Below the pieces are notes generated by a model that saw only the letters and a list, made by a program, of their open reading frames with translations, did no database searches and was not told where the DNA came from. From an uncultured Gammaproteobacteria bacterium (GTDB taxonomy: Bacteria; Patescibacteriota; Patescibacteriia; SBBC01; CAIJZX01), in the NCBI GenBank assembly GCA_964397195.1, contig CAYNGY010000001.1:269415-333414 (forward strand): a stretch of DNA of 64,000 nt, read 5' to 3'. Of this stretch, positions 4,322 to 62,956 are shown piece after piece. The position numbers and the translations under genes were made by a program. How positions within the stretch are numbered: position 1 is the first letter of the stretch; each line of letters starts with the position of its first letter.

Positions 4322-4846
4322 ATGCATTCTGTTGAACAACGAGGTGGCGGACGACGACGACGATCATCCGCGCAACGCGAACCACGCGAATTCGAGCAAA
4401 AGACGATTGAAATCGCCCGCGTGACTCGCGTTGTGGCTGGTGGAAAACGTATGCGTTTTCGGGCCACGGTCGCCATTGGTGATATGAAGGGCAAAGTTGG
4501 CATTGGCATGGCCAAAGGCGGCGATGTGTCCATCGCCATCCAAAAAGCCGCCACGGCCGCTCGAAAAAAGATGATCGTTGTGCCGATTGTTGATGACACG
4601 ATTCCACACCAGGTGTATATCAAGCGTGGCGCCGCAAAATTATTGGTCAAGCCAGCGCCAAAAGGAAGTGGTGTTATTGCCGGCGGTCCGATTCGTATTA
4701 TCATGGAACTAGCTGGGGTCAAGAACGTCGTCAGTAAGATTCTCGGGTCCTCAAACAAGATTAATAATGTGTATGCGCTGTTCGAAGCGCTGGGTTCACT
4801 CCAGACGCGTGAGCACGCACGACAGCTTCGTGGAGGCTCCCGATGA
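4322..4846 (+). CDS. rpsE: 30S ribosomal protein S5
   Basis: 174 aa, S5 dsRBD and C-terminal motifs (VTRVVAGGKRMRFRA, GSGVIAGG). Confidence 0.95.
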   Translation: MHSVEQRGGGRRRRSSAQREPREFEQKTIEIARVTRVVAGGKRMRFRATVAIGDMKGKVGIGMAKGGDVSIAIQKAATAARKKMIVVPIVDDTIPHQVYIKRGAAKLLVKPAPKGSGVIAGGPIRIIMELAGVKNVVSKILGSSNKINNVYALFEALGSLQTREHARQLRGGSR

Positions 4847-19463: not shown

Positions 19464-20141
19464 CTAGTAGTTGCCGCTCGGGAGCGTGTTGACGGTGATG
19501 ACCGCCTCGCTGGACTTCGACCCGGAGTAGGACGTGACCAGCAGGTGAACGGTCTGACCGATGTTCTGGAATGTGAATCGAACACCGTGGACGCGTTCGA
19601 TCATGCCGGGTCGCCCGCGCTCGTCCGGCCGATTCATCGACTCGAGTGCCAGGCAGCGATCGGCGCCGGCGCGAGGTCCGTGTTTGAAGACGGACTCCAG
19701 GTCGTCGGGATCAGCCAAGTAATCGATCTCGACTCCGGTGATCACCGGCCCGCCCTGAGGAACGACCCAGAGCGTGAAGCCCCGAGCGCCGTCGGTCCAG
19801 ACTTGGCCGCCGCCGTAGAGCGTTTCGGCCTTGAGCGGCCGACGCCGGTTGTGAGACAGCGGATCAGGCAGGGCATTCCACCGGACGACGTACCGCGGCT
19901 CGACCATCACGCCCTCGGTGCTACTGCGCTGCGAGGCCGCGCGGCCATCACCGTGGTGGTGACCGGCGTTGCTGGCGTCGAAAACGACTTCGAAAACGCC
20001 GCTTCGCGCATGGACACCGTTGCCGGTGACCGTGACGCTCGGCTTCTCGCGCGGTGCGATCTTGACGCGGGCGTCGGCCATGGTGGTGAAGCCGATGAGC
20101 GCCATCAGGATCAACGCGAACTGCATGAACTTGTTGCGCAT
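19464..20141 (-). CDS. hypothetical secreted protein (high-GC)
   Basis: 225 aa, signal peptide MRNKFMQFALILMALIGFTTMADA, GGAGG SD. Confidence 0.65.
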   Translation of the reverse strand: MRNKFMQFALILMALIGFTTMADARVKIAPREKPSVTVTGNGVHARSGVFEVVFDASNAGHHHGDGRAASQRSSTEGVMVEPRYVVRWNALPDPLSHNRRRPLKAETLYGGGQVWTDGARGFTLWVVPQGGPVITGVEIDYLADPDDLESVFKHGPRAGADRCLALESMNRPDERGRPGMIERVHGVRFTFQNIGQTVHLLVTSYSGSKSSEAVITVNTLPSGNY

Positions 20142-20152
20142 GGCGCTCCTCC

Positions 20153-20542
20153 TTACGGGTAGTTGCTACCACCGATGACGACGCCCCAGTCGTACTGGTA
20201 GCCGTCGGCATTCGTGGGCCCATTCTTGTCGCCATCGATCGTCAGCTTCTTCGGGCCGACGTGGTACGTGGACGGCGCGATGCCGGCCGCCTCGTACGTG
20301 ATCTCGGTGCCGCCGAAGAACTGCTGCGGACTGCCACGGGATTCGCCGCTGGCCCAGTTGTAGTACTTGGTGCCGTTGATGGCGATGTACGCGAGCGGGA
20401 TGTTCTTGCCGTTGTGGAGCAGACCTTTCTGCTCCTTGATCGGTGACAAGATGCCACCGGGGTCGCATTCACGACACCCGATGCTGAGGAAGGCCGCGAC
20501 AAGAATCGCGACCGCCACGAATATCCTGATCGGATTCTTCAT
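20153..20542 (-). CDS. hypothetical lipoprotein (high-GC)
   Basis: Internal start MKNPIRIFVAVAILVAAFLSIGC (lipobox) with GGAGG SD; the longer ORF would overlap the divergent gene. Confidence 0.6.
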   Translation of the reverse strand: MKNPIRIFVAVAILVAAFLSIGCRECDPGGILSPIKEQKGLLHNGKNIPLAYIAINGTKYYNWASGESRGSPQQFFGGTEITYEAAGIAPSTYHVGPKKLTIDGDKNGPTNADGYQYDWGVVIGGSNYP

Positions 20543-20650
20543 AGAACGTGCCTCCATTCCTACGGTGGGAGCTGTTTCGGGACACTCTGTCCTATCATAA
20601 ATAGCGGGATTTGTCAAGACCCCGCGCCCGAAATGTGATATAATCGGTTC

Positions 20651-21121
20651 ATGGCAGAAGGCCAAATACACACACCAGAACGACCGTCATTTGCCCCACC
20701 GGAAGTTGGGCCGGTTGATATTGAATCCAAGGTCGAGCATCCGACTCCGTCCGTAGATACGACGATGGTGCATGAAGTCGTACCCATCACCCCAATCATC
20801 CCAGTCAATGCTCAGCCGATGATGGATGCGGATGGCACGACGTCGGCGCTAACGAAGCGGGTCGAAGACATCATGGTGGCCGGTCTCGCCGAGACGTATG
20901 CCCAACTTGATCCGGCCACGCAAGCCAAGTTCAAGGCTGAAGGTGAACGCACGGCCGGACTGATTTCTGATATGTTGGCCACGGCTAAGATCCACGTCAA
21001 AAAAATCGTCGATCTGCTCGTCGCCTGGTTACGCATTGTGCCGGGCGTCAATAAATACTTTCTTGAACAAGAGGCAAAAATCAAGGCCGACAAACTGTTG
21101 GCGTTAAAAAAGAAGTCATGA
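20651..21121 (+). CDS. hypothetical protein
   Basis: 156 aa; extended -10 (TGTGATATAAT) just upstream; ATGA-coupled to the next gene. Confidence 0.6.
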   Translation: MAEGQIHTPERPSFAPPEVGPVDIESKVEHPTPSVDTTMVHEVVPITPIIPVNAQPMMDADGTTSALTKRVEDIMVAGLAETYAQLDPATQAKFKAEGERTAGLISDMLATAKIHVKKIVDLLVAWLRIVPGVNKYFLEQEAKIKADKLLALKKKS

Positions 21122-23637
21122 ACCCTGATAGCGCCGAGTTTATCGATTTGAATGCGCGTCCGCTGATGATCAGTCCATGGTGGTGGGTCGCGCTCGCGAC
21201 AGTCGTCGCCTTCGTGATCGCTGTGATCGTAATTCGGTACCTGACTCACAAACTGAATCGAATTCCGCGGGCGATGGAATATGTCGTACTGCTCGTTTTA
21301 CTCCCGCGCGAAACGCTGAAACTCGAACAACAGAATAAAGATTGGCGGGATGTCTTAGCCGGGTTTGAAACGCTCTACCTGACCTTGGCCGGTGTTCGAC
21401 TCGAACATGGCGGGTCTTTCGCCAAAGCCTGGCGCCATTTTTGGTTCGGCCGCCACGATCATCTTTCACTCGAGATCGTTTCGACCAAAGGACAAATTCA
21501 ATTCTACCTCGCTGTGCCACGCGCCGTGCGCCAACTGGTTGAACTTCAGATTCAGGCGCAGTACCCGCAAGCGGACATCGAAGAAGCCGAAGACTACAAT
21601 TTGTTCGCCGCGAACTCAACTATCCGCGGAACGATGCTTCGTCTGACGAAGCCCTTCTTTTTTCCGATCCGGACGTATCGGAAGCTCGATAGCGATCCGC
21701 TCAATGCCATTACGAATGTCCTGAGCAAAGTCCAGCCGCAAGAAGGCGCGGCCATCCAGATTCTCATTCGCCCGAAATCTTCGAACTGGAATAGTCGTGG
21801 TCGGCATATTGCCCGCGCCATGCAAGAAGGGAAAACGCTCGGCGAAGCCATGGGCAAGTCCGGCGGTAATGTGTTACTGGCCTCATTAAAAACCGAAAGC
21901 GATCGGTATAAGCAACCGAAGACGCCGTACGTCACGCCGATGGACCAAGAGCTGATACGGACGATGGAGGAAAAAGCGGGGAAGCCCGGTTTTGATGCCA
22001 ACATCCGCATCGTCACAGCTTCACCACTCGCTCCGAATGCTGACGTCCACCTCGAAAATATCGTCAACGCTTTCAGTCAATTTATCGCCCCAGAGTCGGG
22101 CAATCAATTTCGTCGCACCAGCATCGTCAGCTCGAGTCAACTGATTAGCGATTTTATCTTTCGGCATTTCGAGAATGGACGCCGCCTCGTCTTGACGAGC
22201 GAGGAGCTGAATAGTATCTATCACTTCCCGCTCCCGCAGACTGAGACGCCGAATATTCAATGGCTCGCGGCCAAACAAGCCGCGGCGCCGGTCAATTTGC
22301 CGAGTGACGGAATCACGCTTGGTCATAATGTCTTCCGCGGTCACGACGCCGTGATCAAATTAAAACCGAACGATCGCCGTCGCCATGTCTACGTGATTGG
22401 GACGACCGGATCAGGAAAAACGGTACTGATGCAAGAAATGGCCAAACAGGATATTCGCAATGGCGAAGGCGTTTGTATTGTTGATCCGCACGGGAGTTTT
22501 GTCGACGACGTCTTGCCCTGCATTCCGCCGTCGCGCATGCATGACGTCATTCTGTTTGATCCGTCGGATGTCGATCGGCCGATGGGGCTCAATATGCTCG
22601 AGGCTCGCTCACCGGAAGAGCGTGACTTTGCCGTCCAGGAGATGATTGCCATCTTCATGAAACTGTTCCCGCCGGAAATGATCGGGCCGATGTTTGAACA
22701 CAACATGCGGAACGCGATGTTGACGCTGATGGAAGACGACGAACATCCGGGAACGATTGCGGATATCCCGCGCATGTTCACCGATAAAACATTCCAGCAA
22801 TACAAAATTTCGAAAGTGAAAGACCCGGTCGTTCGGGCGTTCTGGGAGAAAGAGATGGCGAAGACGAGCGATTTCCATAAATCCGAAATGCTCGGCTACC
22901 TAATTTCAAAGGTTGGGCGATTTATTGAGAACTCGATGATGCGTAACATCATCGGACAACCAAAATCAGGGTTCAATTTTCGGGCGGTCATGGACGAACG
23001 CAAAATCTTGTTGGTGAATCTCTCGAAAGGAAAAATTGGCGAAGTCAACGCGGCGCTGCTCGGGCTAATCATCGTTTCGAAATTGCAGATGGCTGCCCTT
23101 GGTCGGGCGAACGTCACCGAACTAAATCGGCCGGATTTCTTCCTCTATATTGATGAGTTCCAAAACTTTATTACCGATTCAATTGCGACAATTCTATCGG
23201 AGGCCCGAAAATATAAATTGAATCTGACCATGGCCCATCAATATATGGGGCAACTCGTCCAGGGCACAGACACGCGAGTGCGGGATGCGGTGCTCGGCAA
23301 CGTGGGGACAATGGTCGCCTTCCGAATTGGTGTCGAAGATGCGGAAGTGCTTGATAAACAATTTGCTCCGACTTTTACGGCTTTCGATTTGGTCAACCAG
23401 CAGCGCTTTACCGCGTACGTTCGTCTCCTAATCGATAATACGGCCGCGCCGCCGTTTCATATGCAGACCTACCCATCCACGATTGGCCAGACGACGGTGG
23501 GTGAGGCGATCAAACAATACTCGCGCCTGCGCTACGGGAAAGGCCGCGCCGTGGTCGAGGCCGAAATTCTTGAGCGGACAAAGTTGGGCACCGTCACCGC
23601 GGGCGCGACGCCACTCCCACCAGAACCGTCTCGCTGA
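21118..23637 (+). CDS. VirD4/TraG/TraD-like type IV coupling protein family ATPase (membrane-anchored)
   Basis: 839 aa, N-terminal TM, Walker A GTTGSGKT, Walker B FLYIDEFQNF, overall T4CP-like architecture. Confidence 0.8.
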   Translation: MNPDSAEFIDLNARPLMISPWWWVALATVVAFVIAVIVIRYLTHKLNRIPRAMEYVVLLVLLPRETLKLEQQNKDWRDVLAGFETLYLTLAGVRLEHGGSFAKAWRHFWFGRHDHLSLEIVSTKGQIQFYLAVPRAVRQLVELQIQAQYPQADIEEAEDYNLFAANSTIRGTMLRLTKPFFFPIRTYRKLDSDPLNAITNVLSKVQPQEGAAIQILIRPKSSNWNSRGRHIARAMQEGKTLGEAMGKSGGNVLLASLKTESDRYKQPKTPYVTPMDQELIRTMEEKAGKPGFDANIRIVTASPLAPNADVHLENIVNAFSQFIAPESGNQFRRTSIVSSSQLISDFIFRHFENGRRLVLTSEELNSIYHFPLPQTETPNIQWLAAKQAAAPVNLPSDGITLGHNVFRGHDAVIKLKPNDRRRHVYVIGTTGSGKTVLMQEMAKQDIRNGEGVCIVDPHGSFVDDVLPCIPPSRMHDVILFDPSDVDRPMGLNMLEARSPEERDFAVQEMIAIFMKLFPPEMIGPMFEHNMRNAMLTLMEDDEHPGTIADIPRMFTDKTFQQYKISKVKDPVVRAFWEKEMAKTSDFHKSEMLGYLISKVGRFIENSMMRNIIGQPKSGFNFRAVMDERKILLVNLSKGKIGEVNAALLGLIIVSKLQMAALGRANVTELNRPDFFLYIDEFQNFITDSIATILSEARKYKLNLTMAHQYMGQLVQGTDTRVRDAVLGNVGTMVAFRIGVEDAEVLDKQFAPTFTAFDLVNQQRFTAYVRLLIDNTAAPPFHMQTYPSTIGQTTVGEAIKQYSRLRYGKGRAVVEAEILERTKLGTVTAGATPLPPEPSR

Positions 23638-34898: not shown

Positions 34899-34959
34899 AA
34901 GAATGTTGACGATCTAACCGCGGGGCGTATGGTATCCGTAGTGGTTGGCGTATACGGAC

Positions 34960-35277
34960 ATGCGCAGGTATTACGTCTATATTCTCGCCACGTATCGAAA
35001 CGGGACACTGTATATTGGCGTGACGAATAACCTCATTCGTCGGGTTGATGAACACCGACGCGAAATAGGCGAGAGTTTCACGAAGCGATACCATGTGCAT
35101 CGTCTCGTGTACTTTGAGGAAACGAATGATATCCGCGCCGCAATTTGGCGTGAGAAGTGTCTCAAGCGGTGGTATCGGTCTTGGAAAATTAGGCTGATCG
35201 AGGAACACAATCCATCGTGGCACGACCTCTATCCGAGATTGCTTGGGTACGATGGATGCCCGCCGACGCGGGCATGA
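34960..35277 (+). CDS. GIY-YIG nuclease family protein
   Basis: YVYIL...GTLYIGVTNNLIRRVDEH matches the GIY-YIG motif; TTGACG/TATGGT promoter upstream. Confidence 0.8.
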   Translation: MRRYYVYILATYRNGTLYIGVTNNLIRRVDEHRREIGESFTKRYHVHRLVYFEETNDIRAAIWREKCLKRWYRSWKIRLIEEHNPSWHDLYPRLLGYDGCPPTRA

Positions 35278-37011: not shown

Positions 37012-37308
37012 ATGTACCATGTCTACATTCTGCGTTGCGCTGATGGGACGCTTTATACGGGAATGACGACGGATCTGCCGCGTCGCGTCGTGGAGCACAA
37101 CACGTCGTCAAAAGGCGCAAAATATACCAGAGCACGACGCCCGGTGACGATGGTCTACTCGAAACGATACCGCTTCCAACGGACGGCGGCTCGCGCTGAA
37201 GCGGCCATGAAGAAATTAACGCGAGACAAAAAACTAGCGCTCCTTCAGTCGCTTACTGTCGATGAGCGAGCGAAGAGCCTCCGAAAAGCACCGCCACTGA
37301 GCATGTAG
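37012..37308 (+). CDS. GIY-YIG nuclease family protein (second copy)
   Basis: MYHVYILRCADGTLYTGMTTDLPRRVVEH GIY-YIG motif. Confidence 0.8.
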   Translation: MYHVYILRCADGTLYTGMTTDLPRRVVEHNTSSKGAKYTRARRPVTMVYSKRYRFQRTAARAEAAMKKLTRDKKLALLQSLTVDERAKSLRKAPPLSM

Positions 37309-37490: not shown

Positions 37491-37682
37491 ATGTATATCA
37501 AATTTGACCCGTACGATCGGGCGTACGAACCCGCCCACCCAGCCGAGCCAGCGCAACCTCGTCAGCCGGCGCAGCCACCCGAACCCGCCCGCCCTGCTCA
37601 GCCTCGAGAGCCCTCGCACCCGGCTCAGCCAGCACGTCCCGCCGTTCCGGCTCGCCCGGCCGAACCGGCCCATACGGAGTAA
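37491..37682 (+). CDS. proline-rich low-complexity ORF (doubtful)
   Basis: 63 aa made of PAxP/PxxP repeats from an imperfect tandem DNA repeat; no SD. Confidence 0.2.
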   Translation: MYIKFDPYDRAYEPAHPAEPAQPRQPAQPPEPARPAQPREPSHPAQPARPAVPARPAEPAHTE

Positions 37683-37816
37683 CGAGCGCCGCCCACGGCA
37701 ACATTGACTTCCCATAGTCGTTTCGATAAGCTGTGGGCACGTTCTCGGAACGTGGATATGTCGGATCGTCCGACAGTCCGCTCTTTACATTCCATCCTGT
37801 AGAGGGGAACCCGTCC

Positions 37817-38518
37817 ATGGTGCGTAATGTGTTTTTCACGCTCGCTCTCGTCTGTCTCCCGTCCCTCGCCGCCGCGGCCGAAGTCCCGTACTCCGGCCAG
37901 CTGTCGGAAAACGGCAACCTCGTCACCGGCAACCGTTACGTCGCGCTCAACATCTATGCGACGCCGACCGGCGGTGCTCCGCTGCAGCCAGCTCAGGCCG
38001 AATCACTCGCGGTCGTCGGCGGTGTGTACCACACGGTGCTGTCGGTTCCGAACAACATCTGGTTCGGCGGTGATCGCTGGATCGGCGTCTCGATCAACGG
38101 TGGGCCGGAATTTGTGCCGCGGTTGAAGTACTACGCTCCGCCGCGGACATCGCCGTCGTTGGTGACACGTTTTTCCAACTCCGCTTTTGTCGGGGACCAG
38201 TGGACGAAGATCGACAGCGTTACCGTCAATGCCTCTGTCGACGGGTTTACGATCATCAGCGTCGACGGGTTTGCCACCCAGACGATCAACCCAGCATCCG
38301 CAATGCAATACGCAATTGCCGAAACGACGCCGGCTGAAGCGCTCTCACTGGTCACGTCGATTCCGGTATCGGCGACGACCATGCCGATGAATGCGACGAT
38401 CACGGTAGCGATGACCTCTGGCACCCACAAGGTCTATCTGTGGGGGAAGGTGTTGGCCGTGGGCGGGCAGTATCTTACGGGTGTGAGACACTTCAGCGCT
38501 CTCTACATTCCGAACTAG
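37817..38518 (+). CDS. hypothetical secreted protein (high-GC)
   Basis: Start MVRNVFFTLALVCLPSLAAAA (signal peptide) with GAGGGG SD; TTGACT-17-TAAGCT promoter upstream. Confidence 0.65.
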   Translation: MVRNVFFTLALVCLPSLAAAAEVPYSGQLSENGNLVTGNRYVALNIYATPTGGAPLQPAQAESLAVVGGVYHTVLSVPNNIWFGGDRWIGVSINGGPEFVPRLKYYAPPRTSPSLVTRFSNSAFVGDQWTKIDSVTVNASVDGFTIISVDGFATQTINPASAMQYAIAETTPAEALSLVTSIPVSATTMPMNATITVAMTSGTHKVYLWGKVLAVGGQYLTGVRHFSALYIPN

Positions 38519-38527
38519 GAGGACACG

Positions 38528-39055
38528 ATGCGTACATTGCTCATCGCCGTCCTGCTCATCGGGACGGTCAGTGTCGCCTTCGCCCAGGCCATCCAGCCGA
38601 AGACCCTCATCTCGAGCGGGGGAACGCATTCCGCCGCCGGGAATGTGACCATGACCTCGAACCTCGGCGAACCCATCGCCGGTCACTCGCTCAACGGATC
38701 GACCGAGATCTGGCACGGGTTCTACGCGCCGATCCCGCCGTCCCTCGTCGGCGTCGACAACGAACCGCCGATCACGTTCATGTCCTTCCTCGGACGGGTT
38801 AGTCCGAACCCACTGCGCACGTCGGCCGTCATCGAGTTCGGCAACGCGATCCATCAGCGGGTCGAGCTCACGCTCTATGACGTCACCGGGCGCCGCGTCC
38901 GCCAACTTCGGTCGGGCGACCTCTCCGCCGGCATCTTCCGGATCCCATGGGATCTGCGAACCGACGCCGGGCAGTCCGTTCCGGCGGGCATCTACTTCGT
39001 CCGTCTCGCCACCCGTGATTTCCACGGGACCAGACGAATGGTGGTCATCCGGTAG
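38528..39055 (+). CDS. secreted protein with T9SS-type C-terminal sorting domain (Por CTD-like)
   Basis: Signal peptide; C-terminal about 80 aa (SPNPLRTSAVIEF...VELTLYDVTGRRVRQL...AGIYFVRLAT) matches the T9SS CTD/FlgD-Ig-like pattern; GGAGG SD. Confidence 0.65.
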   Translation: MRTLLIAVLLIGTVSVAFAQAIQPKTLISSGGTHSAAGNVTMTSNLGEPIAGHSLNGSTEIWHGFYAPIPPSLVGVDNEPPITFMSFLGRVSPNPLRTSAVIEFGNAIHQRVELTLYDVTGRRVRQLRSGDLSAGIFRIPWDLRTDAGQSVPAGIYFVRLATRDFHGTRRMVVIR

Positions 39056-39072
39056 TGCATCGCTCCGTTGTA

Positions 39073-39109
39073 CCCCGATCCCTAGCAAGGATCCGGGGTT
39101 TTCTTTTTT
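39073..39109 (+). terminator. rho-independent terminator
   Basis: CCCCGATCC...GGATCCGGGG hairpin followed by TTTTCTTTTTT. Confidence 0.75.
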
Positions 39110-39220
39110 ATCCTAGTTATTTTTGACAGCCGCCCGGGTTCAAGCCAGAGACTAGGGTTTTGAGTTTATCCACAATCAAGGTATACTAGGCAGGTATTTT
39201 AGCTAAGAATAGGGGATAAA

Positions 39221-39255: not shown

Positions 39256-40059
39256 ATGGCTACAAAAAAGGTAAAGGAATTTCGGTATTTCGACCAACCC
39301 GATTTTCGGCTGTATAAGGGTGATTGTATTGAAGTTCTCAATGGTCTAAAAGAAAACTATTTTGATATGATCTTCGCCGATCCGCCGTACATGTTATCGA
39401 ACGGTGGGTTTACGGTTCACGCTGGAAAACGCGTCAGCGTAAATAAAGGAAAATGGGATGAAAGCAAGGGGGCAAAAGAAGATTTTGAGTTTCACGAAAA
39501 ATGGATTGCAGCCTGTCGCCGAGTCCTCAAACCCGATGGCACTATTTGGATTAGTGGGACCTATCATTCAATATATGCCTGTGGGTTCGCACTTCAACTG
39601 CAGGGTTTCAAGATCCTTAATGACATCGCTTGGTTTAAGCCCAACGCGAGTCCGAACTTGAGTGGCAGGTATTTTACCGCTAGTCATGAAACTTTGATCT
39701 GGGCGAGGAAGGATCCAAAGGCGAAGCATACCTTCAATTATAAGCTAATGAAAACCGGCGACTGGAACGGTGATTTTCTGAAGAATCCAGGCAAACAAAT
39801 GCGGAGTGTTTGGGCAATCGGGACGCCCAAGGCGGCTGAAAAGACTTTCGGGAAACACCCGACGCAAAAATCTTTAGCATTACTAGAGCGCATTGTTCTG
39901 GCTTCAACCAACAAAGGGGCGAGAATTCTTGATCCATTTTCGGGAAGCTCAACGACTGGGATAGCGGCCGTGAAACATGGTCGGGAGTTTGTTGGGGTTG
40001 ATATTGACCATAAATTTTTATCACTTTCAAAAATGCGTTATCAAGCCGAGAAAGGTTAA
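39256..40059 (+). CDS. type II DNA methyltransferase, beta-class N6-adenine/N4-cytosine (DPPY)
   Basis: 267 aa; motif IV DPPY precedes motif I LDPFSGSSTTG (beta-class order); AT-rich segment. Confidence 0.85.
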   Translation: MATKKVKEFRYFDQPDFRLYKGDCIEVLNGLKENYFDMIFADPPYMLSNGGFTVHAGKRVSVNKGKWDESKGAKEDFEFHEKWIAACRRVLKPDGTIWISGTYHSIYACGFALQLQGFKILNDIAWFKPNASPNLSGRYFTASHETLIWARKDPKAKHTFNYKLMKTGDWNGDFLKNPGKQMRSVWAIGTPKAAEKTFGKHPTQKSLALLERIVLASTNKGARILDPFSGSSTTGIAAVKHGREFVGVDIDHKFLSLSKMRYQAEKG

Positions 40060-40063
40060 TATT

Positions 40064-40546
40064 ATGTCTGCCACGTACGCCGCCGCTCAAGGGTCGGTTC
40101 TCGAACAGCAGGTTCGCAGTGTTCTCGGACAAAAAGGATTTCAACTGGAAAGATACTCGGCCTGGTTGAAGAACCCAATGATCGGGGACGAATTGTTGCT
40201 TACAAATGCGCCATTCACAACCATCTACAAGCATTCCGGACATACGGAGTTCTTGTTAGTATCAAAGAAATATAACATCCATACACGAATCGAATGTAAA
40301 TGGCAGCAATCCGCAGGCTCAGTGGACGAGAAGCTGCCGTATCTTTACCTGAACGCAATTGAACAAATGCCGGAAGAAGATATTATTATTCTTATTGATG
40401 GAAAAGGTTGGAAGCCGGGCGCAATACAATGGCTTAAGGATGCGATCCGTGAGAAAAAATATGTTGTTGGTATTACAAAAACCAAGAACATCCAGGTATT
40501 AGATCTGCAGGGATTCATTGCGTGGGCTAACAAGACATTCCGGTAG
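40064..40546 (+). CDS. putative type II restriction endonuclease (PD-(D/E)XK-like)
   Basis: About 160 aa directly after the MTase on the same strand in the AT-rich island; candidate E-x-K in TRIECKWQQ; no other detectable similarity, as usual for REases. Confidence 0.5.
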   Translation: MSATYAAAQGSVLEQQVRSVLGQKGFQLERYSAWLKNPMIGDELLLTNAPFTTIYKHSGHTEFLLVSKKYNIHTRIECKWQQSAGSVDEKLPYLYLNAIEQMPEEDIIILIDGKGWKPGAIQWLKDAIREKKYVVGITKTKNIQVLDLQGFIAWANKTFR

Positions 40547-42033: not shown

Positions 42034-44409
42034 CTAGACGTCGAGCGGATTCGGAACCGACGTTTGCGGAACGGCCTCGCTGAGGAGCTGGAGATGGAAG
42101 GCATGCGCGTCGCCGCGTTTGCGAACTTTGTTCCAGAGCGGAGTGGCACCCTCAATGGCTTTGATCACGCTGCGCCAGACAACCAAGGCGATCACAATCC
42201 GGTAGAAGATACGTTGGAGTGGGAGGAGGACAATCAGCCAGCGTTTCCCGCGCTCCGGATATAAGGCGAGACCGGCGTAGAGCAGGTCAATCGCGGTAAA
42301 AATCAGGTAGACAATGAAAGCCGATTGACCGGAACCGGTGATGATCGCGAGGATGAGCAGGAAGTCCATCAGTGGGACGAGGAGCGAGATCAAAACGGTA
42401 AAGATCAAGGTATTCGGGAGGACAACCCAGCCCAGTGCCGGTCGCTCAAAGCTCAAAAAGTGGCGTTTGTATTTCCACAGGCACTGGACCGTGCCGAAAA
42501 TCCATCGCGAGCGTTGCTTAATAAAATCCTTCAGGTGGAACGGCGTTTCGCTGTAGGCATAGGCTTGCGACTCATAGACGATGCGATGGCCGGCGGCGAG
42601 GAGCGCCAAGGTCAGGTCCTGGTCTTCGACGAGTGTATCGAGACTGAAACCCCCGGCGGCTAGGACGAATGAACGGCGCCAGGCCCCAACCGGTCCGGGC
42701 ACGACGCCGATAGCGTTTATTTCATTAAAGGCGCGCTTGTCCATGTTCTGCGTGATGATGTACTCGGCCGACTGGAAGACGTTGAGAATATTTCGCGACC
42801 GCGTAGCGCAGACGCGACCAGCCACGGCCGCTACGGACGGATCATGAAAATGACGAACGAGGCGGGCGATGGTGTACCGATCAAAAATAGTGTCGCCATC
42901 CATGAAGACGATCACCTCGGTCTTGGCTAAATGTAAACTATGGTTTAATGCACGGGCCTTGCCGCCGTTTTTCAGGTTGACGAGGCGAACACGTCGGTCA
43001 TGGCGGTCCTTGATGATTCCTCGGACAATCTCGGCGGTCTTGTCTTTCGAGCCGTCGTTGACGACCAAGATCTTGAGGTGTTCGTAGGTACTATTGAGGA
43101 CGCTGGTAATCGTCGCGCCGATATTATCTTCCTCGTTGTAGGCGGGAATGACGACGGTGACCGGCTTGGTCCAGGCCGACGGCCGAGCGTACCCATTGAC
43201 GGCAGCCACGCCGCGGAAGAGCAGGGTCATGATCAACCGTACGAGTACTAACAAGATGACGATCCGGGTGATCCAAATAACCGTCGTGGCAATCGCCGGC
43301 GCGAGGCTAATGTAGACGCGTGACGCATCAGAGAAGAGGAAGACCGTATTCGTTTGGTGGGAAGGGAGCGGTTGGTACATGGTGGCCGTAATCGCATCGG
43401 CGATTGACATCCGAGTGGTCCGGTCGACCACGCGTTTGGTATCCGGGAGATTGTGTGTGACCTGCCAGTCGACGACGGCGGCTTGCGTCGATGCGCCGTA
43501 GGTCCCGCCACGGTCAACAATCGAATAGCCGCTCATAATCATGAATTGCTGCAGGGCGGTGACGGAGCCGTCAGTTTTCGCATCGGTCGCGCCGGGTACG
43601 AGATCTTGGGTGATCGCCATTTTTTTGGCCGCATCGAGGCCGAGGAGGTCTGAAGCGGTGGTGAACCGATACCCACGGGCGCGAAGCTCGTGGATTATGT
43701 CGGTCAGCGCGGCGATCGTATAGCGTTCGCTGCTCCCATCGTGCAAGAGAATGATATGCCCGCCACCCTTCATCTTTTCCAGCAAGGCGTCAACATTCTG
43801 TTTCGGAGAGGTCGCGACCCAATCTTTCGGGTCGACGTCTGCGCCGACAACCACGTACCCATTTTGCAGGGCCCAGTACAATTGCGGTTGCGATCCCGTC
43901 GGGGCGGTGGTAGGGTCGCTGCCAATATCGAGGAGATATGGGGGCCGGTAGAGCCGGATCGGTTGGCGGGTAATCGTTTCAATGATCGTATCGGTCAGGT
44001 TGAGCTCGAGTCGTAACCGCCAGTTTGAAGACTGGGCTGTTTGGGAGTGCGTGAAGCTGTGATTGCCGATTTCAAAGCCGTTCTCGGCCGCTTTTTTAAC
44101 AAGGGCCGGGTAACGCAGCGCCCGCGAGCCAATAAAAAAGAAGGTGGCCGGAACCTGCTCTCGTTTTAGCACGTCCATGATCGCTTCGGTGCGACCGGGC
44201 GAAGGGCCGTCATCAAAAGTCAGCGCCACGACCTTCGCGGCGCCGACATTATTGTAGTAATAGTTAATATTGACCTGCGCTGGTGGTCGATTGCTCGTCA
44301 GGAGGCCATAACTGAAATCGGCGACGAGAAAGATACTCAGGGCCAAAACAACGCCAACGATTCCACGAAAGATGAACTTACGAAAACGTCGCTGATTATG
44401 GAAAATCAT
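42034..44409 (-). CDS. bifunctional polysaccharide deacetylase (NodB/PgaB-like) / family-2 glycosyltransferase (PgaC/IcaA-like synthase)
   Basis: N-terminal TM, NodB motifs (TFDDGP, HSFTHS), a PG-binding-like segment, then a GT2 domain (VIPAYNEE, DGDT, QRSRW-type QxxRW) with C-terminal TMs. Confidence 0.8.
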   Translation of the reverse strand: MIFHNQRRFRKFIFRGIVGVVLALSIFLVADFSYGLLTSNRPPAQVNINYYYNNVGAAKVVALTFDDGPSPGRTEAIMDVLKREQVPATFFFIGSRALRYPALVKKAAENGFEIGNHSFTHSQTAQSSNWRLRLELNLTDTIIETITRQPIRLYRPPYLLDIGSDPTTAPTGSQPQLYWALQNGYVVVGADVDPKDWVATSPKQNVDALLEKMKGGGHIILLHDGSSERYTIAALTDIIHELRARGYRFTTASDLLGLDAAKKMAITQDLVPGATDAKTDGSVTALQQFMIMSGYSIVDRGGTYGASTQAAVVDWQVTHNLPDTKRVVDRTTRMSIADAITATMYQPLPSHQTNTVFLFSDASRVYISLAPAIATTVIWITRIVILLVLVRLIMTLLFRGVAAVNGYARPSAWTKPVTVVIPAYNEEDNIGATITSVLNSTYEHLKILVVNDGSKDKTAEIVRGIIKDRHDRRVRLVNLKNGGKARALNHSLHLAKTEVIVFMDGDTIFDRYTIARLVRHFHDPSVAAVAGRVCATRSRNILNVFQSAEYIITQNMDKRAFNEINAIGVVPGPVGAWRRSFVLAAGGFSLDTLVEDQDLTLALLAAGHRIVYESQAYAYSETPFHLKDFIKQRSRWIFGTVQCLWKYKRHFLSFERPALGWVVLPNTLIFTVLISLLVPLMDFLLILAIITGSGQSAFIVYLIFTAIDLLYAGLALYPERGKRWLIVLLPLQRIFYRIVIALVVWRSVIKAIEGATPLWNKVRKRGDAHAFHLQLLSEAVPQTSVPNPLDV

Positions 44410-44776
44410 GGGGGAAAATCTTTGGCGGTGACAAGGACTCGACTGTGCGGGCCGCAATTTTCCCTGTATTTAGCTCCGGTGTCAAGTTCGTTTGGATGGT
44501 CAAGTTGGGGACAAGTTTTTTGGCCACAACCAAAAGGGCAAATGGAACAATTCATCCCCAACTTATTTGTTGACAGGGGAGCCGGCCATATGGTTAGCTA
44601 ATATCCGCGCAATTCGTAAAGACCGAAAAGAAAACGATCCTTTCCCATTGTCTGGACCTCAACGGAACGTCATGCGTTTAGGAGGATCTATGAGAACCGT
44701 CCCATTTCGGCGGTCCTTTTTTCGGTATTTTCACTCGTCGTATATTATCTGGTCATAAAAAAATAATTCCATCATT

Positions 44777-47700
44777 ATGCAGAGCAAGTTCTCAATCGGC
44801 TGGAGAGTGCCGAACCGAAAAACCACCCGCCAGCGTTCGTGGCGCACCCTAAATGCGATCGTGGCGGTCTCGGTATTGGTCAACGTCTGTGGCTTTGGCC
44901 TGTTTGGGGCACCACAAGCGGCCGCGGCGCTTGATTCGGGTGCGATTGCGCCGAACCAGACACTGGTGTCGAATGCGGTCACCAGCCCAGATAATGCGTG
45001 GGTTTCCGACAATAATCGTGCCATATTTGGTGCCAGCACCGACACGGCAGATTATGGCTTCGCGAATATCGGCGTGCCGGTTGGCGCCACGATCACTGGT
45101 ATTCAGGTGACGTTGGAAGGGTTGCATTCATCGGGGTTTAACGCGCGTACCCTTACGACAGCACTTTGGAATACGTCGGGGAGCACACCGGACGCGTACA
45201 CGACGGTAAAAACAGCCTCGTCGATGTCGACGAGCTCAAACGACAACGTCAGCACGTTGGGTGGCGCGTCTGATCTGTGGGGCAAAACATGGACCGATGC
45301 TGACTTTGCCAGTGGTACCTTCAAATTGCGGATTGGTGTCAGCGGCTCCAACGGCAGCGCCCAACTCGATCAAGTACTGATCAAAGTGTATTTTACACCG
45401 GCCTGTGCATTAGCTACCCAGGGCAACCAGGTGAGTAACGGCGATTTTGAGATCGCCAGCGGCGATCCAACACTGCCGATGGACTGGGTGCCCGGCTACT
45501 TCGACCCCCTCAATATTACGCCAACCTTTACCTATCCGGTGGCCGGTAACCCTGGCAAGGCGGCGAACGTTCAAGTTTCTGCCTACACGGCGGCTTCTGG
45601 TGAAGAGGCGAAGTGGCTCTTTACCCCGGTCACGACCTGCCCGGGCAAAACGTTTGATATTTCCATCGGCTACACCTCAAACGTTCTGACGAGCGTCTGG
45701 GTGGCGTACCAAATGTCGAATGGAACGACGCCGAATCCAGAATGGGTCGCTGATGCGCCGGCCAGTGCGGCGTGGTCCACCGTGACAGGTCAAATAACCA
45801 TTCCGGCCGGAGTCGCGAGCTTTCAGGTCTTCCAGTCGCTGGCCGCCGTCGGTTCGCTAACGATTGATGCCGTCTCGGTCAAACCGCTCGTGCCGTTCCC
45901 CGAAGGGATGGTGACGCTCAATTTCGATGATACCTTCGCGAGCCAATATACCGTCGCCCCGCCAATCCTCAGCGCCGCGAACCTGAAGGCCAGCTTCTTC
46001 GCGATCACCGATTCGTCCGTTGGTATCGGATCGGACAGCAACTATATGACCTGGGCGAATGTGGCGGCACTGAATGCAGCTGGCCATGAAATCGGTGCTC
46101 ACACTCGGACGCACCCCGACTTAAGTCTCCTGACACCAGAACAGGCGCAGATTGAAATTGCTGGCTCGAAGACGGATTTAGTAAATCACGGTCTGACGCC
46201 AACCACCTTTGTGTATCCGTATGGCGTCTATAACGCCGCCATCATCCAGATGGTCAAAGATGCTGGATTCACGAGCGCCCGAAGCGTGGTTCGTGGTTTC
46301 AACTACCGAACATCGAATAAGTACGCCCTCCTTGATCAGCAAATCATCAACACGACCACGGTCGCCGAAGTTCAAGGTTGGATTGATCAAGCCAAAGCCA
46401 ATAAAACGTGGCTGATTCTTGAGCTCCATGAGCAGACCTCGACACCGGGTCCTGACACTGGCGTGTACTACAACACACCGACGCGATTGCAGGAAATCGT
46501 CACCGCGATTAAGAATAGCGGCATCAAGGTGGTGACGCAATCCGAGGGGACGACCTTAATCAATCCGGTGATCACGGTGGCGCCGTACGTGTTGACGCCA
46601 ACGAATCAAGATATCACCGTGACCGCCACGACAGATTCGGGCACGCTCAACGCGACGTCGCACCTATTTACTGCTAATGGATCGTTTGATTTTATCGCGA
46701 CGGATGAGAACGGGAATTCGACGACAAAAACGGTCACCATTACCAATATCGATAAGGTTGCGCCGGTGGTGACTATTGCGCCGTACACATTGACGCCGAC
46801 CAATCAAGACATCACCGTCGCGGCCAGCACAAACGAGGGGACGCTGAATACCACCTCACATGTCTTTACGGTCAATAGCGCTTTCGACTTCATCGCGACC
46901 GATGCAGCCGGGAATGTGACCACCCAGGCCGTGACCGTGACGAACATTGATAAAACAGCGCCGATTATTACGCTCGATCCTTACAATACGGCGCTGACGA
47001 ATAGCGATATTACCGTCACGGCGCATACGAATGAAGGAACGCTCAATGTGGCCTCGCACACGTTCACGCTGAACGGCTCGTTTGATTTCGTGGCGACTGA
47101 TGCAGCCGGGAATGTGACCACCCAGACCGTGACGATCAATAATATCGATCGCATCGCGCCCGCTGGCACCATCTCGTACAACACCACGGCGCCGACCAAT
47201 GGCCACGTCGTGGCCACCCTGCTCCCAAACAAGTCCGTGACCGTGACGAATAACGGTGGCTTGTTCACCCATGTGTTCACCACGAACGGGAGCTTTACGT
47301 TCACCTTCGTCGATGAGGCAAATAATACCGGATCGGCGATGGCGATTGTCTCAAACATTGATACGACCGCCCCGGTCATCACATTGACGCCATACAATAC
47401 CGCCCCGACAAATACTGATATCACGGTCTTTGCCACGACAAACGAGGGCTCACTCAACGCGACGGCACATACGTTTAGTGCGAACGGCGCCTTCACCTTC
47501 GTGGCGACGGATGCGGCCGGTAATAGCACGTCTCAGGCGGTGACGATCAGCAATCTGAACAAGGTCAAGCCGGTGATCACCCTGATCGGGTCAGCTACCA
47601 TCACTCTGACAAAAGGCGCGGCCTATAGCGATGCTGGCGCGACGGCGACTGATGATGTCGATGGCGATATCTCGATCAAGATGACGGCTGAGAACTCGGT

Positions 47701-48394
47701 GAACACGGCGGTTGTCGGGACCTATGCTGTCCGCTACACCGTGACCGATTCCGCCGGCAACGTAGCCGATCCAGTCACTCGGACGGTGAACGTGGAGGCT
47801 GCCCCGCAAGTGCTAGGCGCCACAACCTTCCACCCGATCATCAAAACGATCAAGCCGGTTAAAGGTGTGTACTCGTACAAGCTGAACGGGAAGACGATCA
47901 AGATTCAGCCGTTCGGTTCAGACTATAAAGGTGTGGTGTGGGGACGGAGCATCGACTTCGGAACGAGTGGCAAGATTTATGTCTTCCTGAATGCCGGTGC
48001 CTATAAGAAAGGCCAGATCAAGGTGTACCAAGCCAACGGGAAGCTCTTAAAGAGCTACAGTCCGTACGGTGGGTTTGCCCTGAGTGGCCTGAACGCTTCC
48101 ATCGTTTCGGAATCAAACGATCAAGTCTATCTCGTGGTGGGGACGCTCCGCGCCGGGACGACCGTCAAGACCTATCAGGTTACCGCCAAGAAGCTCACGG
48201 CGTTGAATGGACTCGTGACGACGACCAAATCCGGAAATGTCCAAGTGAGTTTCCAAAAGCTGTATAAAGGCCAGTATGGTCTGGTGACGATGAAGCTCGG
48301 CGATCGCAAGACATTGAAAGTCTGGAAACTGAATTTCACGACCAAAAAGTTTGTCGAAGATAAGAAAATCAGCAAAACGAAGCTGAAAATCTAA
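44777..48394 (+). CDS. large (1205 aa) secreted surface protein with NodB-like deacetylase domain and tandem Ig-like repeats
   Basis: Signal peptide; NodB-like block (VTLNFDDTF...HTRTHPDL); five about 75-aa repeats; C-terminal DUF5011/HYR-like Ig domain. Confidence 0.8.
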   Translation: MQSKFSIGWRVPNRKTTRQRSWRTLNAIVAVSVLVNVCGFGLFGAPQAAAALDSGAIAPNQTLVSNAVTSPDNAWVSDNNRAIFGASTDTADYGFANIGVPVGATITGIQVTLEGLHSSGFNARTLTTALWNTSGSTPDAYTTVKTASSMSTSSNDNVSTLGGASDLWGKTWTDADFASGTFKLRIGVSGSNGSAQLDQVLIKVYFTPACALATQGNQVSNGDFEIASGDPTLPMDWVPGYFDPLNITPTFTYPVAGNPGKAANVQVSAYTAASGEEAKWLFTPVTTCPGKTFDISIGYTSNVLTSVWVAYQMSNGTTPNPEWVADAPASAAWSTVTGQITIPAGVASFQVFQSLAAVGSLTIDAVSVKPLVPFPEGMVTLNFDDTFASQYTVAPPILSAANLKASFFAITDSSVGIGSDSNYMTWANVAALNAAGHEIGAHTRTHPDLSLLTPEQAQIEIAGSKTDLVNHGLTPTTFVYPYGVYNAAIIQMVKDAGFTSARSVVRGFNYRTSNKYALLDQQIINTTTVAEVQGWIDQAKANKTWLILELHEQTSTPGPDTGVYYNTPTRLQEIVTAIKNSGIKVVTQSEGTTLINPVITVAPYVLTPTNQDITVTATTDSGTLNATSHLFTANGSFDFIATDENGNSTTKTVTITNIDKVAPVVTIAPYTLTPTNQDITVAASTNEGTLNTTSHVFTVNSAFDFIATDAAGNVTTQAVTVTNIDKTAPIITLDPYNTALTNSDITVTAHTNEGTLNVASHTFTLNGSFDFVATDAAGNVTTQTVTINNIDRIAPAGTISYNTTAPTNGHVVATLLPNKSVTVTNNGGLFTHVFTTNGSFTFTFVDEANNTGSAMAIVSNIDTTAPVITLTPYNTAPTNTDITVFATTNEGSLNATAHTFSANGAFTFVATDAAGNSTSQAVTISNLNKVKPVITLIGSATITLTKGAAYSDAGATATDDVDGDISIKMTAENSVNTAVVGTYAVRYTVTDSAGNVADPVTRTVNVEAAPQVLGATTFHPIIKTIKPVKGVYSYKLNGKTIKIQPFGSDYKGVVWGRSIDFGTSGKIYVFLNAGAYKKGQIKVYQANGKLLKSYSPYGGFALSGLNASIVSESNDQVYLVVGTLRAGTTVKTYQVTAKKLTALNGLVTTTKSGNVQVSFQKLYKGQYGLVTMKLGDRKTLKVWKLNFTTKKFVEDKKISKTKLKI
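46560..47580 (+). repeat. about 225-bp tandem repeats (5 copies) inside the surface-protein gene
   Basis: Repeating peptide unit PVVTIAPYTLTPTNQDITV.A.T.EGTLN.TSH.FT.N..FDF.ATDAAGN.TTQ.VT.TNIDK.AP read directly in the sequence. Confidence 0.85.
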
Positions 48395-61347: not shown

Positions 61348-62718
61348 TTACTTGAGCAACCCGCAGGCATGCATCGTGACGATGAGTTCTCGGGCTTCCT
61401 GCTCCGCCGTGACGTTTCGGGCGAACGCGTCACGGATCTGGGCGACGACGTCGCCGATCGTTCGGGTGCCGTCGAGTAGCTGGAGCGTCTTGGCGCCGAG
61501 GGACGAGAAGGCGAGAATGCCGAAGCCCTTGAAGTAGCCAATCGGGCCGTTGATGTCGGACCGGATTCGGTACTGGCGGGTCACCGACAGCCGCGTATCG
61601 TCTGAGATGATCGCCCTCACGCCCATTTCCTTGGGCGTGCGGAGGTGTTGCCACCATTCGCGGGCTCGATACTGCATCATCCCACCGAGTCGACGCGACA
61701 TCGTCCAGACGTTTTCTTCTTCGGGCGTCGGGATGAACTCGTCCGGTGCGTAGAGATGTGCGCCCGGTCGTGAGGCAGAACATCCAGCCCCACAGAAGTG
61801 TGGGCACACGCGGCACTGCCATGGCAGGTGTTCCAGAGTGCGCATGGCCGCCAGTCGTTCCGTCCAGATCGTGGTCAGCGGAGTCGTCAGGATGTTGCCG
61901 AGCGTTCCGTTGAGGATGGAACAGGACTTGACGTCGCCGGTGAAGGAGATGTGGCCGAACCCGGTACCTTGCCAGCAGCCGGTGACCAGATCCCAATCCG
62001 CGACTGGGATCGTGCAGAGAGGGAAGGCGTCACCCATGACGGCGTTGATTCCGGTCTCGGCTTTGACTCGCCGCATCTCCGTGAAGAGCCAGCGGTAGTC
62101 CTTGAGGGACAACCGATCTTCGTGCCAGGTGGCGACCGCCTCGCCGGATGGACAGAGCCTCCCGACGCCGATTTCGTCAACCGGCACGTTGTCCCGACGG
62201 AGATCCCTCGCCATGGCACTGAGCGTCCGGTAGTTGGCTTGGGTTGGGGTGAACAGTAGGTTTATGGCGATGCCCGCGTCATGGCAATACCGGAGCCCAC
62301 GAATCGTACGTTGGTACGCTCCCGGGACGCCGACCATTGCATCGTGCACCGGCTCGGGTCCATGTAGCGACATTGCGCCGCTGGTGATTCCAGAGGCAGC
62401 GAGCGTCTTCGCCATCTCCCCCGTAATCCTGGTCCCGTTTGAGACGAAACCCATGAAGAAGTCGAGCTGTGCGGCGTACGCGACGAGCTCGCGCCAGCCG
62501 TTGAGTGTCGTGAATTCTCCGCCGAACCACCGAATCTCGAAGACCTCGGCATCAGCGAGAGCATCGATCACTCTGCGCACGCGCTCGACAGGCGGATTCA
62601 CATGGCGATGCGTCGCCGAGTTACTGAAACACGGGCCACACTTCAAATTACAGACGAGTGTCGCCTCGAGGTTCACCGAAATCGGCGATTTGAGCGCGGT
62701 GAGGACGTGGGGGTCCAC
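61348..62718 (-). CDS. radical SAM/SPASM-domain peptide-modifying enzyme with C-terminal PqqD-like (RRE) domain
   Basis: CNLKCGPC (CxxxCxxC), SPASM cysteine clusters (CWQGTGFGH...C, CRVCPHFCGAGC), C-terminal about 90 aa with a PqqD-like pattern (LLDGTRTIGDVVAQI...); GTG start at 62718 preceded by AAGGAGA. Confidence 0.8.
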   Translation of the reverse strand: MDPHVLTALKSPISVNLEATLVCNLKCGPCFSNSATHRHVNPPVERVRRVIDALADAEVFEIRWFGGEFTTLNGWRELVAYAAQLDFFMGFVSNGTRITGEMAKTLAASGITSGAMSLHGPEPVHDAMVGVPGAYQRTIRGLRYCHDAGIAINLLFTPTQANYRTLSAMARDLRRDNVPVDEIGVGRLCPSGEAVATWHEDRLSLKDYRWLFTEMRRVKAETGINAVMGDAFPLCTIPVADWDLVTGCWQGTGFGHISFTGDVKSCSILNGTLGNILTTPLTTIWTERLAAMRTLEHLPWQCRVCPHFCGAGCSASRPGAHLYAPDEFIPTPEEENVWTMSRRLGGMMQYRAREWWQHLRTPKEMGVRAIISDDTRLSVTRQYRIRSDINGPIGYFKGFGILAFSSLGAKTLQLLDGTRTIGDVVAQIRDAFARNVTAEQEARELIVTMHACGLLK

Positions 62719-62779
62719 GGCACTCTCCTTGTCGTTAGGTTGGGCGCGCTGGCGATGAAGCCAGCGCGCCCAACGGTGA

Positions 62780-62956
62780 TCACTTGCAGCAGCGGCAGGT
62801 GCACTCGCCGGCGCAGCGCATCGTGGCTTCACGGCGTGCATGCTGAGCGAGCGACCCGCGATTGCTCTGGACGACCGAGAACATGCCGACGGACGGGTTC
62901 GGGCTACCCCGACTCATCCCGACGAGCGTCATCAGGCCACGAAGAACGCGAGTCAT
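62780..62956 (-). CDS. 58-aa Cys-rich peptide, candidate RiPP precursor
   Basis: MTRVLRGLMTLVGMSRGSPNPSVGMFSVVQSNRGSLAQHARREATMRCAGECTCRCCK; SD GAGAGGAGGAAGGC 7 nt upstream; 59 nt upstream of the rSAM gene on the same strand. Confidence 0.55.
   Translation of the reverse strand: MTRVLRGLMTLVGMSRGSPNPSVGMFSVVQSNRGSLAQHARREATMRCAGECTCRCCK

Follow-up and report, generated by a model that had tools for sequence, protein, structure and literature searches.

A GC-rich, probably horizontally acquired two-gene surface-protein cassette with a T9SS type-A-like sorting domain in a Kerfeldbacteria-like bacterium

We analysed a 64,000-nucleotide stretch of DNA (hereafter the window; contig CAYNGY010000001.1 of assembly GCA_964397195.1, positions 269,415 to 333,414), and found that a segment at about 37739–39110 of this window is probably a horizontally acquired, GC-rich, two-gene surface-protein unit, carried by a Kerfeldbacteria-like bacterium of the candidate phyla radiation (CPR). 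Its two open reading frames (ORFs), A and B, are co-directional on the plus strand within 37.7–39.1 kb. ORF A (37817..38518) encodes a secreted protein of 233 residues with a signal peptide, a tail-fibre-type N-terminal module and a TNF/C1q-like head, and ORF B (38528..39055) encodes a secreted protein of 175 residues, whose C-terminal domain (CTD) resembles the type A sorting domains of type IX secretion systems (T9SS).

The layout of the cassette was read as follows. The start of A was set at the ATG at 37817, not at the upstream GTG at 37733, because the homologue alignment and the gene call in an independent assembly agree on it. The two ORFs are separated by only 9 nt, and the putative ribosome-binding site of B, AGGAGG on the plus strand at 38517–38522, overlaps the stop codon of A and stands 5 nt ahead of the ATG of B at 38528. 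The 3' edge is formed by an intrinsic-terminator-like hairpin with a U-tract at 39072–39110 of the same strand (−20.4 kcal/mol, z −2.4 versus shuffles). Since the AGGAGG overlaps the stop codon of A and the terminator hairpin lies downstream, A and B appear to form one transcription unit, which bears out the two-gene secreted-protein operon proposed in an initial annotation of this DNA. The 5' leader on the plus strand (37739–37816) is a conserved upstream stretch defined by blastn, in which the homology to the related locus L005 begins at 37739, and the DNA homology of the cassette to L002/L003 extends to 39108. A consensus scan of the leader found no sigma-70 promoter 5' of A. The N-termini of both proteins read as Sec signal peptides, as the initial annotation had also stated: MVRNVFFTLALVCLPSLAAAA followed by E in A, by inspection and an N-terminal helix in the AlphaFold2 (AF2) model, and MRTLLIAVLLIGTVSVAFA followed by Q in B, by inspection and an AF2 helix at residues 2–14. 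Each opens with a short stretch of basic residues, followed by a hydrophobic core and then by a cleavage site of the A-x-A type (…SLAAAA/E and …VAFA/Q), suggesting that both products would be exported by Sec.

The host was assessed from the ribosomal protein operon at the start of the window, with SecY as the marker. SecY has several thousand relatives, the closest of which belong to Candidatus Kerfeldbacteria or the 'Patescibacteria group' at 72–73% identity, and among the best 120 of these several thousand, all of the named ones are 'Candidatus Kerfeldbacteria bacterium', 'Patescibacteria group bacterium' or 'bacterium' (60–73% identity). The contigs bearing the SecY relatives reach 0.8–1.3 Mb, and Kerfeldbacteria are placed in the Parcubacteria/Patescibacteria group. 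Furthermore, the ribosomal protein uS3 is about equidistant from all phyla represented by solved ribosomes in the PDB. Because the SecY neighbours are Kerfeldbacteria or Patescibacteria and uS3 is equidistant from the PDB phyla, these markers support a CPR-like, Kerfeldbacteria-like Patescibacteria host, in agreement with the CPR-like organism suspected in the initial annotation; it would be a GC-rich (56%) relative of the named Kerfeldbacteria. The putative S5 (4322–4846) and L15 (4843–5289) genes, identified by reading the sequence only, overlap with no L30 gene between them; a missing L30 is often cited as a CPR trait. The GenBank title of GCA_964349465.1 names a Gammaproteobacteria bacterium, and we rejected this as a host clue, as the uS3 of the window is no nearer to that of E. 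coli than to those of other phyla. The related loci L003/L010 lie in this assembly (contig CAYGGC010000001.1, titled 'uncultured Gammaproteobacteria bacterium'), and the label is probably wrong, because they share 55–77% identical non-cassette ORFs and gene order with the Kerfeldbacteria-like loci.

The cassette is a compositional island. The GC content of the pair is 0.623 (A 0.603, B 0.650), whereas the ribosomal region has 0.541 and the window averages 0.563 (sd 0.030). The pair is thus GC-richer than the ribosomal region, as the initial annotation had claimed, but by about 8 points (A 6, B 11) instead of about 10. It falls in the top 1.9% of equal-sized segments by GC, and a GC content as high is reached at five other places in the window. 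The GC content at third codon positions (GC3) is 0.76 in A and 0.85 in B, versus about 0.62 elsewhere. Expression-linked codon bias is an unlikely cause of these values, because the ribosomal protein genes themselves have a GC3 of only 0.51–0.63. In every related locus, the cassette likewise has 58–66% GC against flanks of 46–56%, with sharp edges.

A sharp-edged compositional outlier that adjoins a second, low-GC island could be produced by an assembly chimera or by contamination wrongly joined to a CPR contig, and a chimeric assembly had indeed been considered in the initial annotation. However, the exact B protein is also present on a 10.5-kb contig from the independent Logan assembly of SRR12487045, in which both junctions are identical. 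The upstream genes of that contig (a partial ORF and a 156-aa minus-strand ORF) and its downstream genes (a methyltransferase, a PD-(D/E)XK nuclease, a 351-aa protein and a glycosyltransferase) are the same as those of the window. In addition, related non-cassette genes flank the cassette in five other genomes from different samples. A misjoined segment is therefore extremely unlikely.

We then characterised B, in which a conserved Gly/Ser-rich segment with a linker (residues 20–90; 38585..38797) precedes the CTD (residues 91–175; 38798..39052). Residues 91–173 matched the NCBIfam model TIGR04183, 'T9SS type A sorting domain', with 34.3 bits against a cutoff of 23 and over 71 of the 72 model positions. 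The match stops 2 residues short of the stop codon, and all 14 of the 14 members of the B family (14 clusters in the family alignment) matched the model. The Pfam family PF18962 (Por_Secre_tail), the other profile named for checking this domain, missed it with 23.9 bits, under the gathering threshold (GA) of 27; a precomputed PF18962 match is present on some B homologues. The top Pfam match of B was instead the Ig-like domain of the flagellar hook cap protein FlgD (PF13860, FlgD_ig), with 35.1 bits versus a GA of 27 at residues 110–161. AF2 with the family alignment modelled residues 87–173 as a seven-strand Ig-like sandwich, with a block-mean predicted local distance difference test score (pLDDT) of mostly 83–93. 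The structural matches of this domain included the CTDs of PorU, PorZ, mirolase, RgpB and RemA, and also FlgD and Vpr.

The likeness to T9SS type A substrates extends to the position and motifs of the domain. The CTDs of RgpB, PorU and PorZ of P. gingivalis and mirolase of T. forsythia occupy the ~85 extreme C-terminal residues of proteins with a Sec signal peptide, as in B, and the PNP and GxYF motifs and the basic last strand are visible in the B family alignment. The identity of the B CTD to those of PorU, PorZ and mirolase is 20–22%, and the B family profile aligns the CTD in full with the C-terminal 94 residues of PorU (E 3e-5). In contrast, the profile aligns only the core strands, residues 110–164 of B, to Salmonella FlgD (E 1e-8). 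B has no FlgD N-terminal domain, no flagellar genes lie nearby, and the FlgD equivalog models gave scores of about 32 bits against cutoffs of at least 230 (NF005176, 32.2 versus 230), with matches only at the Ig core of residues 109–163. The same fold is seen in Vpr, a serine peptidase of Bacillus, whose C-terminal Ig-like domain (PDB 8jmw) is 12–16% identical and gave no sequence-level match. B also differs from T9SS type A substrates, since its 'cargo' comprises just ~70 residues with neither an enzyme nor an adhesin domain of its own. This segment, residues 20–90, holds the conserved motif LISSGGxHSAAGxVTMSSNLG...WHGFYAP; it matched no family in Pfam or NCBIfam and was modelled with pLDDT <50. 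Thus, by the curated NCBIfam model the CTD of B is a T9SS type-A-like sorting domain, and the description of a T9SS-type Ig-like CTD in the initial annotation was correct, because TIGR04183, the AF2 sandwich and the alignment with PorU agree. As judged from structural models, this Ig-like fold is not exclusive to T9SS and also occurs in proteins of monoderm bacteria, such as Bacillus Vpr.

The cassette recurs in several CPR loci, L003/L002, L005–L008, L009, L020 and L023, all from other samples. The non-cassette ORFs of the CPR-context loci are 55–77% identical to one another and 42–70% identical to those of the window, with 65–70% identity for the PIF1 helicase. When species representatives were scanned with a narrower alignment, a single full-length relative emerged. 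In L020 and L023 the cassette comprises three genes, owing to a second, diverged copy of A that lies between A and B in L020 (10736–11509) and upstream of A in L023 (4178–4963); these copies encode 257–261 residues and score 116–140 bits to the A profile over approximately positions 1–210. The synonymous sites of PIF1 are saturated, with a proportion of synonymous differences (pS) of 0.73–0.78, and PIF1 of the window and L020 shows no excess of identical codons (z 0.4), whereas A of the same two loci does (0.70 observed, 0.45 expected, z 6.5). Window A is closest to L020, and window B is closest to P0002 (L023) and to L003. Even the two halves of A disagree: relative to P0159 (L020), the head of window A is 86% identical and the N-terminal module only 43%, while the reverse holds for P0162 and P0164, with 78–79% for the module and 26–29% for the head. 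These comparisons of sequences show that the A module, the A head and B have been swapped and recombined among CPR lineages to give a mosaic, because the codon excess of A is absent from PIF1 and the relationships of A and B, and of the two A halves, are incongruent. Such exchange among genomes helps explain why the cassette has not taken on the composition of its hosts.

The outer relatives point to the source of the cassette. Four more distant B homologues, P0011–P0014, are 36–48% identical to window B and lie on short contigs of uniform 69–72% GC. On one such contig, L016 (71% GC), an A homologue of 234 residues overlaps a B homologue of 179 residues by 4 nt, and both match the surrounding composition. 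Four more proteins end in the same CTD within the 14.6 kb of L016 (31–76 bits, with a model made from the B family only), and the CTD-tailed proteins there include an FG-GAP protein and an Ig-domain protein. In another locus, L022, the gene before B encodes a secreted protein other than A, whose fibrinogen/COLFI-like similarity is weak and sub-threshold. The matches in a metagenome scan were almost all to the CTD only, and the nearest CTDs lie on contigs of median GC 66%. In a neighbour-joining tree of mature B, the CPR-context copies form one clade with the high-GC copies outside it. We interpret L016 as a native, donor-type context; the high-GC native context, the abundance of CTDs on L016 and the tree position are therefore the pattern expected of transfer into the CPR clade. 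The horizontal acquisition proposed in the initial annotation thus fits the GC island in every host, the 69–72% GC relatives, the tree and L016, and transfer from high-GC, CTD-rich bacteria into the CPR clade, followed by mosaic exchange there, is the account in which we have good confidence.

Several points weigh against this account. The B tree, rooted on its most divergent sequence, carries no support values, the divergence of the hosts was gauged by a single marker, PIF1, and the sequences trace the donor only as far as a high-GC, CTD-rich bacterium. Furthermore, the cassette and PIF1 show similar residual codon signals between the window and L009, and there may consequently have been some vertical descent within part of the CPR clade. 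Taken to its full extent, this would make A and B an old, vertically inherited CPR pair, with the high GC kept by gene-specific selection and the high-GC bacteria as recipients. The similar residual synonymous signal of the window–L009 cassette and PIF1 favours such a history, as does the partial synteny of PIF1 and GIY-YIG neighbours across the CPR loci. On the other hand, the pair on L016 matches the composition of its host and shares its CTD with four neighbours, as expected of a native gene, while in CPR genomes the cassette is always a compositional island. The ribosomal genes of the window lack an elevated GC3, which argues against expression-linked selection; the high-GC sequences branch outside the CPR clade; and the relationships of A disagree with those of B, as do those of its two halves with each other. 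Wholly vertical inheritance is therefore improbable, and transfer into the CPR clade is preferred.

A sorting domain of this type raises the question of a T9SS in the host. T9SS has been described for the Fibrobacterota–Chlorobiota–Bacteroidota (FCB) superphylum (PMC11205867), and Patescibacteria have been proposed to lack an outer membrane (PMC12102498). Our literature search for a link between T9SS and Patescibacteria or CPR gave no relevant result, consistent with the statement of the initial annotation that T9SS is not known in CPR-like bacteria. Unlike the T9SS hosts, the present host, Kerfeldbacteria-like by SecY, would stand outside the FCB superphylum, with no T9SS part detected and, by current views, no outer membrane. 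A scan of ~27 window proteins revealed no T9SS family, and neither did the Pfam annotations precomputed for the related loci. A CTD hidden Markov model derived from the B family found only B in the 64-kb window and no further CTD proteins elsewhere in the CPR loci, and the same model did detect CTDs in Bacteroidota loci and L016. The density is thus one tail-bearing ORF per CPR locus, as compared with approximately one per 3 kb on L016. Given a single tail protein in 64 kb and no sign of any T9SS component, the tail is most likely reused without a T9SS in the CPR host; possession of a T9SS by this CPR bacterium does not follow from the CTD. To be set against the reuse of the tail is the extent of the region covered, namely the ~64 kb window and ~85 kb of related loci (~150 kb), when the source contig has 477 kb.

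Alternatively, B might be a working T9SS substrate, with the T9SS, or an equivalent CTD-recognising export machinery, of the CPR lineage encoded outside the window. The CTD does pass the curated TIGR04183 cutoff, aligns end to end with the PorU CTD and is the most conserved part of B across the CPR copies, and yet we regard such a system as very unlikely here. At the opposite extreme, the CTD could be an inert leftover of the transfer, with only A, or the N-terminal segment of B, being of use to the CPR host. That no cognate machinery was seen agrees with this, and so does the ratio of non-synonymous to synonymous differences (pN/pS) of ~0.5, which is fairly relaxed. All copies of the cassette are nevertheless intact ORFs, and their pN/pS of 0.3–0.6, versus <0.1 for PIF1, indicates that the cassette is under purifying but fairly relaxed selection. 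Within B, the CTD has the lowest non-synonymous divergence (pN 0.25, versus 0.34 for the N-terminal segment), keeps 16 of the 22 invariant residues of the family, and is complete in all copies, even though the identity of the proteins has fallen to 48–65%. These features make an inert tail unlikely, and reuse of the tail without a T9SS remains the reading that we prefer.

ORF A was modelled by AF2 with a mean pLDDT of 81 as two domains, a beta-sandwich N-terminal module (residues 22–108; 37880..38140) and a TNF/C1q-like jelly-roll head (residues 114–233; 38156..38515), which is the variable part. The full-length protein gave no match in Pfam, NCBIfam or PHROG, and an exhaustive profile search found only 25 full-length-type relatives at E ≤ 1e-30. 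In contrast, the N-terminal module (profile positions ~5–110) was matched by 18,035 representative proteins at E ≤ 1e-3, and by 919 at E ≤ 1e-10. Among ten long matches of the module that were scanned, three end in Peptidase_S74, one ends in Phage_depo_C and six have no Pfam match; a shorter match, P0185, has TLDc at its end. Thousands of 'tail fibre domain' surface proteins that end in Peptidase_S74 (the endosialidase chaperone) open with this module, and A differs from them in that the head directly follows the module, with neither a long fibre nor an S74 chaperone. Because the module is common to long proteins with S74 or depolymerase ends and the head follows it directly, A is, as far as its sequence tells, a minimal bacterial 'tail-fibre-like' surface protein with a conserved base and an exchangeable head. 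A has no match in PHROG or, by tblastn, in 50,697 phage records. A phage origin of the cassette was rejected on these results, together with the absence of a PHROG match for B.

The modelled head of A is a ten-strand jelly-roll that can be superposed on TNF/C1q domains. Its fold relatives include a TNF-like lectin of Photorhabdus, the C-domain of Chlamydia Pgp3, BclA/ExsFA of Bacillus, the fibre tip Bd2734 of Bdellovibrio and phage tail-fibre tips. The identity to the TNF/C1q-like head proteins is only 9–16%, with no membership in their sequence families, and A lacks the collagen or coiled-coil stalk.

The genes around the cassette were also inspected. Immediately 5', a putative 63-aa plus-strand ORF (37491–37682) reads PAxP-type repeats (PAHPAEPAQPRQPAQPPEPARPAQP…) and contains a 27-nt tandem repeat (3.9 copies, 66% matches, 37527–37631). 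This ORF has no family match and no DNA homology in the related loci, and on the opposite strand a gene caller predicted a 156-aa ORF. Small GIY-YIG nuclease genes surround the cassette, at 34950–35230 and 37012–37308 in the window, with one or two per related locus (L003, L005, L009); in the window and L005, one lies directly upstream of A. Directly 3' is the low-GC island (39256–40546; 45–48%, ~10 points under the window), which encodes a CcrM-like N6/N4 DNA methyltransferase (39256–40059) and a PDDEXK_11 nuclease (~40064–40546), probably a type II restriction-modification pair as judged by their families. The slot after B holds type I restriction-modification genes in L009 and a methylase in L003, and it looks like a variable defence slot.

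A few kb downstream, 42034–48394 encodes two large envelope-polysaccharide proteins: a minus-strand fusion of 807 residues, with a polysaccharide deacetylase, a sub-threshold peptidoglycan-binding match and a family-2 glycosyltransferase, and a protein of 1205 residues that combines a polysaccharide deacetylase domain with a bacterial surface Ig-like domain. Farther away, an 839-aa VirD4/TraG-type coupling protein (21118–23637; TrwB_AAD_bind, T4SS-DNA_transf, TraG-D_C) fits the report that monoderm-type type IV secretion systems are common in Patescibacteria (PMC12102498). A second GC3-rich pair (0.83 and 0.75) on the minus strand, at 19464–20141 and 20153–20671, encodes predicted secreted or membrane proteins that lack Pfam matches at E ≤ 0.001 and whose PHROG match is only marginal; the pair may be another acquired cassette. 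Finally, a GC-rich stretch (GC3 0.75) at 61348–62841 of the minus strand encodes a radical SAM protein of the peptide-maturase type, with SPASM and PqqD-like domains.

Attachment to other microbes is the way of life of CPR bacteria, and to our knowledge the proteins that they use for it are mostly unknown. We tentatively propose the following model for the A–B pair. Sec would export both proteins, and A would form a TNF/C1q-like head, probably a trimer, that acts as a lectin or adhesin and is seated on a short base of the tail-fibre type. B would be the partner of A, as suggested by the two genes lying side by side or overlapping in seven contexts, the donor-type contig among them; the N-terminal segment of B, both conserved and intrinsically unstructured, would bind A and may fold on binding. 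In the CPR cell, the Ig-like CTD of B would then be a T9SS-independent surface module, as a tether or spacer, and if that cell is episymbiotic, a plausible use of the pair would be attachment to glycans or to the host cell. Donor bacteria would use this CTD to pass the complex through the T9SS and anchor it at the surface. Against this model it must be said that the trimer is proposed solely by analogy with the fold relatives, that gene adjacency is the sole ground for the partnership, and that the T9SS of the donor lineage is presumed.

Two further possibilities, together decidedly unlikely, would give the CTD a sorting or docking role. The CPR cell might display or release the A–B complex, so that the CTD meets the PorV/PorU-type shuttle or the anionic-lipopolysaccharide attachment of an FCB-type host, and the lectin head would thereby be fixed on the host surface through its T9SS surface machinery. 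Otherwise, Kerfeldbacteria-like CPR might use an unrecognised CTD-dependent sorting route in a single-membrane envelope.

The finding of an orphan 'T9SS sorting domain' that persists under purifying selection, in a lineage believed to lack both a T9SS and an outer membrane, calls for caution when secretion systems are inferred from signal domains in metagenome-assembled genomes, and provides a lead towards a T9SS-independent role of the Ig-like CTD. That a small CTD protein recurs beside a lectin-like neighbour lacking the CTD may hint at an arrangement of the adaptor or piggy-back kind in the donors. For the CPR bacteria themselves, the cassette would represent a small, mobile and fast-evolving secreted pair with a lectin-like head, which probably came from outside the radiation and has been moving among its relatives.

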